The position numbers and the translations under genes were made by a program. Source: Acidobacteriota bacterium (GTDB lineage Bacteria; Acidobacteriota; Vicinamibacteria; Vicinamibacterales; 2-12-FULL-66-21). From it: a stretch of 58,845 nucleotides of DNA. Location: positions 1 to 58,845 of the forward strand of contig JBKPTT010000149.1 of the NCBI GenBank assembly GCA_046735635.1. Reading direction: 5' to 3'. Position 1 is the first letter of the stretch, and each line of letters begins with the position of its first letter. The notes under the pieces were generated by a model that saw nothing but the letters and a program-made list of their open reading frames with translations, did not search any database and was not told the origin of the DNA. Below, piece after piece: positions 12,261 to 18,954 of this stretch.

Positions 12261-15200
12261 TCAGCGACTCGCGGCGGCAGCGGACGCCGCGACGCTCCCC
12301 GCCGTGCCGGCGCGCTGCACCGTCTCGAAGGCGACGGCCGCGAGCTGGTAGGCGAGGTTGGCCTGCAGCTCGTTGTTGCGCGCGACAGCCAGGTCGCGCT
12401 GCGCCTGGATCACGAGGAAGCTCGTCGACATGCCGACTTCGAACCGCTTCTGTTCCGCGTCGAGACGCTGCTCGGCGAGTTCCCGTCCGAGCTGCGCCGT
12501 CTCGATCCGTTGGCGGTTCTGCTCGAGTCTCAGCGCGGCGTCGCGCACTTCGCGGACGGCCCCGAGCTCCACATCACGCAGCCGCGTGTCGGCCTGCTCC
12601 CGTTCGAGCCGCGCTCGCGCGAGGTTCGCCTCCTCGACGCTCTTCCCGATCGGATACGACAAGGTGAAGCCGAGCGTCCACGTCGGAAAGTCCGACGAGA
12701 ACACCTGCCCGAGAACGTTTCCCCATGACGAACTGTCACTGCCGACGATCGTGCCGGGAAATCCGCCGCTGCGAATCAGGCGTGAACCGCCGAGCCCGTT
12801 CGTGAGATACGTGGCCTGCAGCCGCAGATCGGGTAGCGTTTGATTCTTCGACAGCATGACGTTCGTGTCGCCGATCTCGATCTGCTTGCGCGCTTCGGCG
12901 ATGTCGGGTCTGTCGGCGAGCGCGCGGCGGACGGCGGCGTCGACGTCGGGGGGCGCCCCCGGCGGCGGCACGGCGTCGGCAGGATCGAGATGCACCGTCC
13001 ACAGGTCGGCGCGACGCGGATCGAATATCATCGTCCGCAGCGCATCTTCTGCCTCCAGCGCGAGCGTGCGTGCGACGATCAGGTTCTCGCGGCGCTGCGC
13101 CACCTCGGCGCGTGCGGTGACGAGATCGAGCGGCGGCGACTGACCGACGTCGACCCGCGCGCGGTTCGTCCGCTCGAGCTCCATCGCGAGATCGAGCGAA
13201 CGCTGCTGCACGTCGACCGACGCGCGGGCCTGGACGAGCAGCCAATACGCGCTCTCGGCGTCGGCCTGCGTCCGGGCGATTGTTTCCTGCAGCCGCAGGT
13301 CTGAAATCTCGCGATTACGCTCGCTCACCTGCACCTGCGCCCTCGACGCGTCGACTTTGAAGTCGCGCAGCAGTGGCTGCGAGAACACCGCCTGCGCCGA
13401 CGACGTGATCGATGGCGTGAACGTCGTGAGCGGATTGGTCGTCGTGGTCCGCGCGGAATTGAAAGAAACGTCGTAGCTCGCTCCGCCCCATCGCAGCAGC
13501 TGTGACAGTCCTGCATTCCCCGCCCAGTACCGCGTATCCAGCGACGAGTCGCCGGAAAAGATATTGCTCGACGGCGTCGACTGGCTGTTACGCTGCAGCC
13601 CGCTCGAGAGCGTCGGGGCGAACACGCTGCGAGCCGCGGCAACCCGCTCGGCGCTGATAGCCGGATCGAGTTTTATCGTTGCGAGCGCGGAGTTGTTTTC
13701 CAGCGCGAGCCGCACCGCTTCGTCCCGGCTCAGGCGAATAGTCTCGGCCGGCGCCTGCACCGCCGCGGAAGGGGCTTGCGGCGGCGGGGCTGGAGTTTGC
13801 GGTGCGAGGACCTGCGCCGACGGTGCCTGCGCGGGCGCCGGCGTCTGGCTTTGCGCCTCCGCTCTGGAGGCGGGGAGGGCGAATGCTGCAAGCAGCACCG
13901 TCGCCGTCACCGCCGCGGGCCGCGCCGCGCGCCTCCAGCGGAACAAGCGAATCCGCGACGCATCGTCGAACAGCGAGTATGCAACGGGGGTAACGACGAG
14001 TGTGAGAAGCAGGACCAACGATTGACCTCCCATGATCACGAATCCAATTGCTCGATTGGTGGCCGCGCCGACGCCGCTCGACAGCACCAGCGGAATCATC
14101 CCCGCGACAAACGCGAACGTCGTCATCAGAATCGGCCGGAGCCGGTCGCGGCTCGCCTGAACGATCGCAGCCTCACGCTCCATGCCGCGCTCCCGCAGCT
14201 GGTTGGCGTGGTCGATCTGCAGGATCGAATTCTTTTTCACGACGCCGAACAGCACGAGCAGGCCGAGCGCCGAGAAGATATTGAGCGACTGCCGGGTGAT
14301 GATGATCGACAGTAGCGCGAACGGCAGCGTCAGCGGCAAGGACAGCAAAATCGTGATGGGGTGCAGCCACGATTCGAACTGCGCCGCCAGGATCAGATAC
14401 ATGAACACGAGCGAAAGCGCAAACGCGACCAGGAAGTTCTGTGCGGCGCGCCCGAGCTCGCGCGATCGGCCCGCGAACCGCGTGCTGTAGCCCGGGCCCA
14501 TCTCGAGCGAGTCGGCCGCGCGTGTGATGGCGTCCATCGCCGGCGTCTGCGAGTAGCCGGGCAACAATCCGGCGAACACGGTGACCTGACGTTGGCGGTT
14601 GAGGCGATTGATCTCCGTGGGCGCGCTTCCGTGTGCGAAGCGGGCGATGTTCTCGAGCGGGACGCTTCCGAGCTTTGCCGACGGCACCGTCAGCTGGCCA
14701 ATGCCTGCGACGGTCTGACGGTCCCCCTCTCCGGCGCGCACGTGCACCTCGTACTGCTCGCCGCCTTCGTTGAACGTCGTGACCTGATCGCCGCCGACGA
14801 GCAACCGCAGCGCTTCCGCCGCGTCGGAGACCTGGACCCCGAGATCCGCCGCCTTCAGCCGATCGAGATCCACCGTCAGCTCGGGCTTGCCGACGTTCAT
14901 CGACGTGTCAACGTCGACGACTCCGGGCTGCTTCCTTGCCGCGTCCGCGACGCCGTTTCCGTACCGCTCGAGCGCTTTCAGATCGGGACCGTTGATCGTG
15001 AATTGGATCTCGGCGCTCTGATTGCCGCCTCCGCCAATGGTTGCGACCTGACGCACGCCCGTCCTCAGCTCACGTCCGGCGACCTGCGGAAGCGCGTTCG
15101 CGCGGACCTCGTTCATGATGGTGAACTGATCTCGCTCGCGCTGGCCGAGCGGCTTCAGGCGCACATACACGGTGCCGGAATTCTGCGTCTGCGCGGGATC

Positions 15201-17024
15201 GTCGGCCACGGTGACCAGCGTGAACCCGACCTCCGGAACCTGCCGGATTCTGGCGGCGATTCGATTGGCGATTATCTCCGTCGCCTCGAGGCTCGTGCCC
15301 TCCGGCGCGCGCAGCCCGACTTCGAAATCCGACGTGTCGTCGTTCGGCAGGAAGTTCTTGTTCGCGACCATCCCGAGCGGAACGCTGCTGAGCAGCACCA
15401 GGCCGGCCGTGCCCGCAATGATCCAGCGATGCGAGAGCGACCACCGCAGGATTGCCGTGTAGGCGTGGTCGAGCGGCCGGAAGAACCGCGCTTGTTTGGA
15501 ATCGTGATCGTGGAGCTCGCGCCCTTCCGAATCCTCACGGCGCACCGGCATCTTGATCCAGCGCGCCGCGAGCATGGGCGTCAACGTGAAGCTGACAAGC
15601 AGCGACACCATGATCGCGAACGACATCGTGAAGCCGAAGCTGGTCATGAACCGGCCGACAATGCCGCCCATGAACCCGACCGGCACGAAGATCGCGATCA
15701 GCGACAGCGTTGTCGCGAGCACGGCAAGGCCGATCTCGCGCGTTGCCTCGATTGCCGCCTGGAACGGTGGACGGCCTTTCTCCTCGACGAAACGGTAGAT
15801 GTTCTCCAGCACCACGATCGCGTCGTCGATGACGATGCCGACCGACAGCGTCAGCGCGAGCATCGTCATCGAATTGAGCGTGAAGCCTTCGTACCAAATC
15901 AAGCCGAAGGTGGCGATGATCGACGTCGGAATCGCGATGGCGGCGATGATCGTGGAACGCCAGTTCCAGAGAAAGATGAGGACCACCGCAGCCGCGAGAA
16001 TGGACCCGACCACGAGATGCTCGTCGACACTGCGGATGGATGCGCGAATGAACTCCGACTGGTCGCGCACGATCCGAATCTCGTAGCCGGCGGGCACCAG
16101 AGAGGCAAGATCGGCGAGCCTCTCCTTGACGGCATCGACGACTTGAACCGTGTTGGTGCCGGACTGTCGACGAATCGTGAGCAGCACCGTCGGCTCGCCG
16201 TCGAGGTTCGCGACGGTCGTGGCGTCAGCCATCCCGTCTTCGACCGTGGCGACGTCGGCCAATTTGATCGGGTACGAATCGCGCTGGCGCACCACGATGT
16301 CGCCGAATTCGGGCACCGACTGCACGCGTCCGCGCGTACGAAGCGTCAGCGCTGCGGCGCCTTGCTCGACGCGACCGCCGGGAATCTCTGCGTTCTGCGT
16401 CTGCAGGGCTCGCGCGACGTCGTTGACGGTCAGGTTGTAAGCCCGCAGCCGCGCGGCGTCCAGCGCGACGTTCACCTGCCGAGCCCGGCCGCCAACGACG
16501 ACGACCTGACCCACGCCATTGACGCTTTCCAGCTGGCGTCGAAGCACCTTGTCGGCATATTCGGTGATGTCGCGAATCGGTTTCTTGGCCGACACGGCCA
16601 GCGTCAGGACGGGCGCCGCATCCGGATCGAACTTCTCAACGGTGGGCTGCTGAATCGTCTTCGGAAGCAGCGGGAGCACCCGGTTGACGCGATCGCGAAC
16701 CTCCTGCGCGGCAATGTCCGCGTCTTTCTCGAGCAGGAACGACACGACCACAAGCGAGACGCCTTCGGAGGAGGTCGACCGGAGCTCGTCGATGGCGCTG
16801 ATCGTGTTGACCGCCTCCTCGATCTTGTCGGTGATCTCCGTCTCGACTTCCTCAGGCGCGGCGCCAGGCAGGCGCGTCGTCACCACGACGGTCGGGAAGT
16901 CGACCTTTGGAAACCGATCGAGCCCGAGCCTGGTGAACGCAAAGGCGCCGACGACGGTCAGCGATAGGATGAGAACGCTCGCGAAAACAGGACGTTTGAC
17001 GGATATGGATGCAAGCCACTGCAT
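12261..17024 (-). CDS. RND efflux permease (AcrB-like) read in frame into a TolC-like outer-membrane factor (fusion ORF, 1587 aa)
   Basis: aa 1 to about 1030: [22 protein letters not shown]... with 12-TM AcrB architecture. aa about 1027-1057: Sec-signal-like [34 protein letters not shown] linker. aa about 1095-1587: OMF repeats ([19 protein letters not shown]..., [17 protein letters not shown]..., [19 protein letters not shown]). No stop codon anywhere between the two parts. Confidence 0.85.
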
Positions 17025-17044: not shown

Positions 17045-17070
17045 GGCGGGCCTAAAGGCCCGCCCTACAA
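17045..17070 (-). repeat. REP-like GTAG hairpin, type A (minus strand: TTGTAGG-GCGGGCC-TTTA-GGCCCGC-C)
   Basis: Perfect 8-bp stem 17045-17052 / 17057-17064, loop TAAA, flanking CTACAA. Lies in the 80-nt spacer between the MFP and RND genes. Second copy at 831-856. Confidence 0.75.
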
Positions 17071-17104: not shown

Positions 17105-18301
17105 TCAGCGGACCTGGACGGCGGCACCATCGGTAAGCCGCCCTTTCGGCGCGGCAGCGACGACGTCACCGGCCGAAAGGCCGCTCGTGATCTCGACCTG
17201 CCGGCCTACGGTTTCTCCCGTGGTAACGATTCGCTCTTCCACCTTGTCGCCCTTGACGCGATACACGCGGCTGGTTCCCGAAACGGTCTCGACGGCCGTC
17301 GCGGGCACGAGCAGTGCCGGCGCGGAAGGCGGCTGCTGGATCGCAGCTGTCGCGAAGAGACCTGGCTTCAACCGGCCGTCCGGATTTGGCGCAATGGCTT
17401 CGACGGTCAACGCGCGCTGGTCGGCACGCAGCGCAGGCGAGATGAACCGCACTTTCGCCGCGAACGTCGCGCCCGGGTAGGCATCAACGGTGAGCCGCAC
17501 GGATTGTCCTTCTTTGATCAGCGAGATCGCCTGCTCGGGTACTGTCAACTCGATCCGCATCGGATCGACGCGGACGACCGTTGCGACGCGGGCGCCGCGT
17601 GTCACGAAGTCGCCGACGCTGACGACCCGTTCGGCCACGAGCCCGGAAAACGGCGCGCGGATTGACGTGTCGGCCTGGGCTTTGCGGGCGAGCGCGACGC
17701 GGGCCCGGGCCGCCTCGAGCGACCGGTACGACTGTTGTGCCCCGTTCTGCGCCATCTGGTATTGCTGGCGCGCCGCGTCGACCTGCGCGCGCCGCTGGTC
17801 GTACTCGCTTTGCGAGACGACCTTCTGGTCGAGCAACGCCTTGATGCGATTGAACTCCGCCTCTGCGAGATCGAGCGACGCCTTCGCGTTCATCACTTCC
17901 GGAACGCGCATCGGATCGAACGCCTGTCCGGACGCGAGCCCGAGACGTGCTTCGATTTGCGAGGCGTTTGCTTCCGCTTCTGCAAGCTGCGCGGATGTCT
18001 CCTCGGGCGCGATCCGTGCGAGCACCGTGCCCTGAGCCACGCGCATGCCGCGCTCGACCGGAGTCGCGACGACGCGGCCGGCGCTTTCGGCGCTGACCTC
18101 CGCCTGTTCGTCTGCGTTGAGCGAACCGGTTACGCGAAGGTATCGTTCGATCGGCCGCTCGTCGACTTTGGCAACTTCAACCGACAGCGGCTCGGGTCTG
18201 GCTTGCGCCTCGACGGTCGTGTTCCGGCCGCCGCACGCTGCGGGGCCGGCCGCAACCGCGGCAAGCAGAATTGCTGATAGCCACTGTGTCCGACGTTTCA
18301 T
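17105..18301 (-). CDS. efflux RND periplasmic adaptor (membrane-fusion protein, HlyD family), lipoprotein
   Basis: Start set at ATG 18301: MKRRTQWLSAILLAAVAAGPAACGG (lipobox). Coiled-coil hairpin and beta-barrel regions typical of MFPs. The 97-aa Arg-rich 5' extension in the track is rejected. Confidence 0.85.
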   Translation of the reverse strand: MKRRTQWLSAILLAAVAAGPAACGGRNTTVEAQARPEPLSVEVAKVDERPIERYLRVTGSLNADEQAEVSAESAGRVVATPVERGMRVAQGTVLARIAPEETSAQLAEAEANASQIEARLGLASGQAFDPMRVPEVMNAKASLDLAEAEFNRIKALLDQKVVSQSEYDQRRAQVDAARQQYQMAQNGAQQSYRSLEAARARVALARKAQADTSIRAPFSGLVAERVVSVGDFVTRGARVATVVRVDPMRIELTVPEQAISLIKEGQSVRLTVDAYPGATFAAKVRFISPALRADQRALTVEAIAPNPDGRLKPGLFATAAIQQPPSAPALLVPATAVETVSGTSRVYRVKGDKVEERIVTTGETVGRQVEITSGLSAGDVVAAAPKGRLTDGAAVQVR

Positions 18302-18318
18302 GATGACGTGCTCCGGCA

Positions 18319-18954
18319 TTAACTGCATTTCGATTGGTATGTCTGAGGTATCCCCGTGCGAAGCCCGGTCAACGCTGCCTCCAGCGTGTCGCGCGCGAGC
18401 GCATCGGCGTCGTCGTTGGGTGCGAGGCGGTCGCACAGCGTGAGCGTGGCCACTCCGTGAACCGTCGCCATCAGAATTCGAAACACGGTCGGTGGCGTCG
18501 TGCCGGCGGGGAAACGGCCGGCGTCGATCGCCTCCTGAATGCGCGCGTTGATCCGCTGCTTCATTTCGCCGACGAACCCGAAACGCTCCCACGCCTGGCT
18601 GATGCGCGGCACGGATCGATCGAGGAACATCAGCGCGAAGTATTCGGGGTGCTCGCGGCTGAATTCGTACAGGCGCAGGAACCCTGCCCGGATGTCGTCG
18701 ATTGGATCCGCAAGCTTCCGATCGCCCGCATGAGCGAACAGCATTCGAAAACCCTCTTCGGCGAGCGCCAGGAAGATGTCGTCTTTGCTCGGGAAGTAGC
18801 TGTAAATCGCGGCGGGGCTGTACTCGATCTTCTCCGCAATCTTACGGATCGAGACGTTTCGGTACCCCTCAGCCACGAACAGCTCGCGCGCGGCATCGAG
18901 AATGGCGCGGGAGACGGCCTCGCGCTCACGTTCCTGTCGTTCTTTGACTCCCAA
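18319..18954 (-). CDS. TetR/AcrR-family transcriptional regulator
   Basis: 211 aa. HTH AILDAARELFVAEGYRNVSIRKIAEKIEYSPAAIYSYFPSKDDIF. First gene of the tetR-MFP-RND/OMF operon. Confidence 0.88.
   Translation of the reverse strand: MGVKERQEREREAVSRAILDAARELFVAEGYRNVSIRKIAEKIEYSPAAIYSYFPSKDDIFLALAEEGFRMLFAHAGDRKLADPIDDIRAGFLRLYEFSREHPEYFALMFLDRSVPRISQAWERFGFVGEMKQRINARIQEAIDAGRFPAGTTPPTVFRILMATVHGVATLTLCDRLAPNDDADALARDTLEAALTGLRTGIPQTYQSKCS

Follow-up and report, generated by a model that had tools for sequence, protein, structure and literature searches.

A fused RND permease and outer-membrane factor in Acidobacteriota: two pump subunits probably made as one cleaved precursor

Introduction

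Intrinsic drug efflux in diderm bacteria depends mainly on tripartite RND pumps, and the way in which their subunits are matched and brought together across two membranes is still debated. In a 58,845-nt stretch of DNA from an Acidobacteriota bacterium of the order Vicinamibacterales (contig JBKPTT010000149.1, positions 1 to 58,845; hereafter the window), a single reading frame encodes both the inner-membrane RND permease of such a pump and its outer-membrane factor (OMF), a protein of the TolC family. How can one polypeptide supply parts to two different membranes? An earlier examination of the same DNA (the original prediction) had drawn attention to the gene and offered three accounts of it: a genuine fusion, loss of the RND stop codon with the OMF still made from an internal start, or a sequencing error. 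Here, we show that the fusion is widespread and long-lived in Vicinamibacterales, an order of soil Acidobacteria, and that it has arisen repeatedly elsewhere. The gene probably encodes a polyprotein precursor of two subunits of a canonical TetR-regulated tripartite RND pump, exported by the Sec system and cleaved by signal peptidase I. The end product is likely to be an ordinary three-part pump that is made in an unusual way.

One reading frame for two pump subunits

Coordinates are those of the window, and features on the minus strand are read from high to low. The parts of the gene are:

12261..17024, minus strand: open reading frame (ORF) of the RND-OMF fusion, 1587 amino acids (aa), 171.7 kDa, ATG start, stop codon at 12261-12263
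13965..17024, minus strand: HAE1-type RND permease part, aa 1-1020, with an ACR_tran domain and 12 transmembrane (TM) segments
13920..13964, minus strand: basic tail of the RND part, aa 1021-1035, predicted to double as the n-region of a signal peptide; holds a non-conserved TTG at 13944-13946
13854..13919, minus strand: predicted h- and c-regions of the internal signal peptide, aa 1036-1057 (22 residues), ending A-E-A and followed by Q
13740..13853, minus strand: linker rich in Pro, Ala and Gln, aa 1058-1095 (38 aa), predicted to form a flexible N-terminal extension of the mature OMF
12264..13739, minus strand: core of the TolC-family OMF, aa 1096-1587, with two Pfam OEP domains and both profile and structure matches

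The ORF and its translation bear out the description of a lone 1587-aa frame without an internal stop, and both of its halves prove to be as complete as the original prediction had them. The permease half matches Pfam ACR_tran (PF00873) at aa 5-1019, over model positions 2-1020 of 1021 (E 6e-286). It also matches NCBIfam RND_permease_2 (E 9e-271), yet stays under that subfamily's strict naming cut-off. A 19-residue hydropathy scan finds the 12 TM segments in the order TM1, loop, TM2-6, TM7, loop, TM8-12, and then one extra segment. This thirteenth segment (aa 1037-1055) lies at the junction, where a check of the topology had been proposed, and is the least hydrophobic of all, scoring 1.51 versus 1.9-2.4 for the other 12. 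The translation contains the proton-relay motifs, namely Asp-Asp in TM4, Lys in TM10 and Arg in TM11; by motif position, these would be equivalent to D407, D408, K940 and R971 of AcrB. Both termini of AcrB are cytoplasmic. Given 12 TM segments and this topology, the C-terminus of the RND part should likewise lie in the cytoplasm.

In the OMF half, two OEP repeats (PF02321) reach aa 1567 (E 5e-49), and the NCBIfam TolC-family model matches at E 3e-23. With domain E-values this low, chance matching is not an issue. The OMF part, searched against PDB sequences as a single query, had no match at E <= 0.001. An OMF profile searched against solved structures matched TolC (E 8e-14) as well as CmeC and OprM, and aligned the start of the OMF core with the first residues of mature TolC. 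We also modeled aa 1021-1587 with AlphaFold2, as a monomer and from an input alignment made of substrings of database hits. The model contains a full TolC-like protomer from about aa 1096 onward, with two strand-plus-long-helix repeats, while the preceding 73 residues are unstructured. Foldseek aligns it to 1ek9 over about 480 columns (E 1e-17, TM-score 0.74 when normalised to TolC). Across its TolC-family matches, the best E is 7e-20, and TM-scores to target range from 0.62 to 0.76.

Distribution of the fusion

If the missing stop codon were peculiar to this contig, an error would be a ready explanation. A homolog search of a 5.8-billion-protein collection, in which some matches are named Vicinamibacterales, found the same fusion in >120 protein clusters (90% identity) from the independent sources NCBI, ENA, JGI and Logan. 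Each of the best 120 matches is 1526-1593 aa long, includes both Pfam domains and shares 74-100% identity with the window protein. In addition, we scanned one genome per species (80 loci, nearly all Acidobacteriota), placing the RND and OMF parts by tblastn and following the frame from one to the other. About 45 of the 80 species-level genomes have the fusion.

A neighbour-joining tree built on the RND domain puts the window into a clade that comprises about 25 species-level genomes with RND identity of 78-90%. An alignment of orthologous loci had been suggested in the original prediction as a way to learn whether a stop is normally present. Such an alignment shows the junction fused and in frame in every member of this clade, and a stop with a separate start in the unfused loci of the sister clade. 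Pairwise comparison with 18 clade members gives a dN/dS of 0.125 for the RND part and 0.28 for the OMF part, and the OMF part is thus under purifying selection.

These data bear on the idea that the fusion is an artefact or a gene in decay, in which an assembly error removed the stop or shifted the frame, or in which the OMF is a remnant and the pump relies on another OMF. Some related loci in metagenome-assembled genomes (MAGs) do have frameshifts (L012, L048, L052, L057 and L058, four of the five in the window's clade). They affect the RND or OMF bodies and never the junction, and all five loci come from a single MAG series (MFD...), so assembly indels or pseudogenes are likely. The idea is also in line with an OMF that one relative encodes on its own (71% identity to the OMF domain of the window), described below. 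Set against it are the in-frame junction shared by the >120 clusters and by all clade members, linker indels that preserve the frame, the complete TolC fold and the OMF dN/dS of 0.28. Together these exclude a sequencing error, the third of the original accounts, as well as a decaying remnant, and we regard any version of this idea as extremely improbable.

Beyond the window's clade, the picture is more varied. The sister clade has an RND identity of about 66-72%; in it, fused loci (including L023, L026, L028, L029, L031, L037, L039 from Luteitalea, L041, L044 and L055) are interleaved on the RND tree with two-gene loci (including L030, L032, L033, L038, L040, L042, L043, L045, L046, L051, L053, L059 and L060). 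This interleaving implies that the two states are functionally equivalent. The groups have dissimilar junction sequences, and the distribution therefore requires that fusion or fission took place several times independently. A clade of Bryobacterales (L064, L074, L077-L079) is fused throughout, and its sister in Blastocatellia is unfused.

Two observations from these loci may be recorded here. In five of the Blastocatellia (L067, L068, L071, L073, L075), the unfused RND protein ends in a conserved, partly hydrophobic sequence, ...W(A/G)RRKAA(A/S)ATS(M/S)F(L/F)GLF(R/K)-stop. In one Vicinamibacterales MAG (L009:5944-7557), an OMF that is 71% identical to the window's OMF domain stands alone, with its own Met and signal peptide and with no RND gene within 6 kb. 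It may be a fission product or a duplicate of the OMF part of a fused gene.

The junction

What lies between the two subunits? The junction sequence, the A/Q boundary, the linker rich in Pro, Ala and Gln, and the TTG at 13946-13944 are all exactly as originally described. Signal peptidase I is predicted to cut after A1057, between bases 13854 and 13853. We aligned this region of the window protein with that of the 120 close homologs (121 sequences). With its net charge of +3 to +6, the tail conforms to the positive-inside rule; an uncharged h-plus-c region of 17-26 residues follows it. The hydrophobic core within this region is short and weak (about 14 residues), and a Pro separates it from the c-region. 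Conservation reaches at least 90% in the A and Q columns of the site. At position -3, 86 of the 121 sequences have Ala, and about 112 have a small or aliphatic residue. Sites were located by searching for [AGS]Q, which makes part of this tally circular, notably the presence of Q at +1 in 121/121; the independent support comes from the alignment columns. With these properties, the segment looks like a signal peptide more than a membrane anchor.

Two other kinds of export signal were considered and rejected. The tail of the window protein contains RR, as in substrates of the Tat system. This pair is not conserved (KR and GR are common), and outer-membrane barrel proteins cross the inner membrane unfolded, via Sec; on both grounds, Tat export was set aside. 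An OMF of the lipoprotein type was set aside as well, there being no lipobox Cys at the site in the window or in the 120 homologs. In that respect, the OMF is TolC-like and not OprM-like.

The origin of the segment can be read from unfused relatives. In an exhaustive search with aa 801-1587 against 1.84 billion cluster representatives, stand-alone OMFs of 520-590 aa (35-51% identity) give alignments that start at residues 3-20 of the OMF and at query positions about 240-250, so that their N-terminal signal peptides fall on the window's internal segment. In unfused orthologs of the locus, the RND protein ends ...FDD-xxK-x-R-x-F-G-R-R-R...PASAS-stop; a short spacer or overlap follows, and then the OMF begins with M-R-(R/K)-T, a hydrophobic run and A-x-A/Q-T-P, leading into ...LRLTVDEAV. 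Several fused relatives still have the ancestral Met and n-region in frame (L023/L055, ...FSGVMMRRTALL...SAQ; L026/L031, ...GAAMGRT...; L029; L057). In the window's clade, the ancestral Met is gone, and the basic juxtamembrane tail of the RND part (RLWRWKR) provides the positive n-region. Direct alignment thus shows that the internal segment shares its origin with the signal peptide at the N-terminus of unfused orthologous OMFs, which is the ancestry that the original prediction had assigned to it.

Downstream of the predicted site, the linker is the least conserved segment (dN/dS about 0.46, a noisy value; pLDDT <50). Its length is 8-46 aa in the window's clade (median 17), where indels are many and all of them preserve the frame. 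In the sister-clade fusions, linkers read by eye from the sequences are 5-10 aa long, the same as in unfused orthologs; those of distant fusions are about 5-10 aa, and lengths across the family are mostly 5-20 aa.

The distant fusions are cluster representatives with 33-35% identity over the C-terminal query (P0130, P0137, P0138, P0152, P0205, P0221, P0261 and others). Named carriers include Capsulimonadales (Armatimonadota; a MAG), Bryobacteraceae and a MAG labelled "Deltaproteobacteria bacterium". In all of the distant fusions, a small-x-small site comes after a hydrophobic segment, and most of them also have a basic tail ahead of that segment. In P0221 (L082:3091-7668; 1525 aa, from an 18-member cluster), the hydrophobic run is 25 residues long, ends AAAAA/EEPG and comes after an acidic stretch, EEEEDVAAD. 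This charge pattern is unlike that of the window type, and in P0221 the segment may be a true anchor or be otherwise oriented.

Fate of the fusion protein

A cleaved precursor accounts for these features as follows. The RND part would insert with its usual 12 helices and end in the cytoplasm with the basic tail. The tail, the core of about 14 residues and the A-x-A/Q site would then act as an internal Sec signal peptide, formerly the N-terminal one of the OMF, and take the OMF part of about 530 residues across the inner membrane. After cleavage by signal peptidase I behind A1057, the RND protein (114.5 kDa) would keep the remnant of the signal peptide as a C-terminal thirteenth helix, and the free OMF (aa 1058-1587, 57.2 kDa, beginning with Q1058) would be released to the periplasm and inserted into the outer membrane as usual. 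The pump would finally assemble with the separately encoded adaptor. In this scheme, the fusion would enforce equimolar and co-localised synthesis of the RND and OMF subunits. Sec export, cleavage and any selective benefit of the fusion are all things that we infer from sequence.

A different outcome would be a fusion that is never cut, with the thirteenth segment as a permanent TM helix and the OMF, its barrel in the outer membrane, covalently tethered to the RND part through the linker. The topology is formally compatible with such a tether, the hydrophobic segment is unusually conserved in the window's clade, and the window's own 38-aa linker is Pro-rich and hence extended. The distances are less accommodating. 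TolC consists of a 40 Å barrel and a 100 Å helical tunnel, with its N-terminus at the equatorial domain, and the periplasmic part of AcrB measures about 70 Å. We take the first mature residues of TolC or OprM to lie at least about 120 Å from the inner membrane if RND and OMF dock directly, and farther if the adaptor bridges them. Linkers of 5-17 residues span at most about 20-65 Å (17 residues, no more than about 65 Å), and those of 5-10 aa in the sister-clade and distant fusions fall far short of the OMF N-terminus. Even 38 aa (at most about 140 Å) would be borderline at best in an assembled pump. Thus, most of the linkers are too short for the distance, which argues against a tether. Furthermore, the segment is the weakest of the 13 in hydropathy and keeps an A/Q site of the signal-peptidase type, and fused and unfused states swap freely in evolution. 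We consider a permanent tether quite unlikely. Hence, the genuine fusion of the original prediction is supported; of its two variants, cleavage after export is favoured and the uncleaved thirteenth helix is disfavoured, given linkers mostly of 5-20 residues.

Several observations nevertheless weigh against simple cleavage of a precursor. The window's own linker is at the long extreme of the family. Across the 120 homologs, the RLWRWxR tail and the AAATAT first half of the hydrophobic segment (13890-13950) are 80-90% conserved, like the OMF, and the dN/dS of tail plus segment (0.29) is near that of the OMF. Signal peptides are not usually kept this constant, and the segment may have a further function. 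The helix left on the RND protein may have gained a role there, or the unusual export context may impose a constraint of its own. One can imagine, with rather low probability, that in the window's clade the fusion does more than yield two normal subunits in a neutral manner: the conserved tail and AAATAT half would form a functional thirteenth RND helix, and the OMF, necessarily made in cis, would have its export and delivery coupled in space or time to its own pump. On that account, which we likewise hold with little confidence, the gene itself would direct the assembly of a trans-envelope machine, perhaps by way of a short-lived tethered intermediate. A last point on this side is the in-frame TTG at 13944-13946 in the tail of the window protein, which gives some internal initiation in this organism a slim chance.

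Internal initiation is central to another reading, according to which the RND stop was lost, the OMF is made from an internal start (this TTG or another codon) and the 172-kDa product is a tolerated by-product. GTG codons are present in the window's h-region, and several sister-clade and distant fusions retain an in-frame Met at the ancestral start. No strong Shine-Dalgarno motif is evident even at the fusion gene's real ATG, so that the lack of one at an internal start is uninformative. An internal start codon, however, is not conserved. The TTG, which had been put forward as the ancestral OMF start, is indeed in frame, but in the window's clade its column reads L84/F21/V6/W6/I3/A1. The stretch from TM12 to the hydrophobic run is devoid of ATG, GTG and TTG in 14 of 26 clade genomes, and an ATG occurs there in only one of the 26, which leaves OMF synthesis by internal initiation unsupported for the clade. 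Purifying selection on the OMF and the exclusively in-frame linker indels also speak against it. That the OMF is under such selection despite having no conserved internal start indicates that it is translated as part of the long protein, and we judge the read-through relic to be improbable.

Comparison with known systems

Production of the two subunits as one cleaved precursor can be compared with what is known of other envelope machines. Canonical tripartite operons (MexAB-OprM of Pseudomonas aeruginosa; AcrAB-TolC and MdtABC of E. coli) have the same three components, the adaptor-RND-OMF order and a TetR-type regulator upstream; they share with this locus an HAE1-type RND protein with the proton-relay motifs and an OMF of the TolC fold. 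Related Acidobacteriota, moreover, have unfused orthologs of the locus. The differences lie in how the parts are encoded. Here, RND and OMF occupy one reading frame with no stop between them. The OMF has no start codon of its own in the window's clade, its signal peptide is internal, and an extra C-terminal helix is predicted to remain on the RND protein.

As a conceptual precedent, FbcH comes closest: in it, an inner-membrane polytopic protein is likewise fused upstream of an exported partner of the same complex. The FbcH precursor is reportedly cut at an internal signal peptide into two subunits. The elements of such a logic (a basic stretch, an internal hydrophobic segment and a conserved small-x-small site) are present in the window type. 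This cytochrome b-c1 fusion is documented for Bradyrhizobiaceae in PMC4986455, which cites Thöny-Meyer 1997. FbcH differs in that it belongs to a respiratory complex, its released part stays anchored in the inner membrane, and it has no homology to the proteins described here.

Other fusions join subunits permanently. Engineered AcrA-AcrB fusions have been used for cryo-EM. SecDF of Thermus is a natural fusion within the export machine (PMC8277102). Like the gene studied here, these place subunits of one envelope machine in one polypeptide and thereby fix their stoichiometry; they differ in staying covalently joined, with both parts in the same membrane. RND and OMF belong to different membranes, so the two parts would have to be separated.

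In the full-text literature, with partial coverage of subscription journals, we found no description of a natural RND-OMF fusion, and it is absent from a 2021 Chemical Reviews monograph on tripartite pumps and from a survey of outer-membrane porin fusions. The RND-OMF polyprotein is apparently undescribed. Public databases already list its members by generic RND names, and the label is simply "efflux RND transporter permease subunit". An inventory of genes in these genomes therefore misses the OMF, which is a practical point of caution for annotation. If cleavage occurs as proposed, a Sec signal peptide can work even when buried behind 12 TM helices, an instance of a polyprotein logic that is rare in bacteria; the pump itself would be ordinary, and the interest would lie in its biogenesis and evolution. 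The family is also a natural setting in which fused and unfused orthologs can be compared directly, with a 1:1 ratio of RND to OMF built into the former.

Neighbouring genes and other observations

The fusion gene is part of a cluster that also contains:

18319..18954, minus strand: gene for a TetR-family regulator at the head of the cluster (Pfam TetR_N, E 3e-18, and TetR_C_33)
17105..18301, minus strand: gene for the periplasmic adaptor (membrane fusion protein, MFP), 398 aa (HlyD_D23, E 5e-30; RND_mfp, E 7e-70)

In the window, the MFP gene adjoins the RND gene on its upstream side and on the same strand, and an MFP gene lies directly 5′ of RND in 39 fused and 21 unfused related loci. The TetR gene is kept 5′ of fused and unfused loci alike. 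The order TetR-adaptor-RND(-OMF) is common to both kinds of locus and to two non-acidobacterial fusions, the Capsulimonadales locus and a metagenome locus. The probable start of the adaptor is the ATG at 18301 (MKRRTQW.../MKRRTQWLSAILLAAVAAGPAACGG); the mechanically called ORF (17105-18592) begins at a GTG far upstream. The adaptor possibly has a lipoprotein signal (...GPAAC) with an atypical box. Downstream of the fusion gene is a convergent gene for a FAD oxidoreductase.

A scan of the window for tRNA genes and Rfam families found none. Antisense to the RND gene is an ORF of 868 aa (14361-16967, plus strand); it is a shadow ORF typical of high-GC DNA and not a gene. Finally, a GC-rich hairpin, GGGCGGGCC-TTTA-GGCCCGCC (17045-17065, minus strand), lies in the 80 nt that separate the adaptor and fusion genes. 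It has no T-run after it and so may act in mRNA processing or stability, or as an attenuator.

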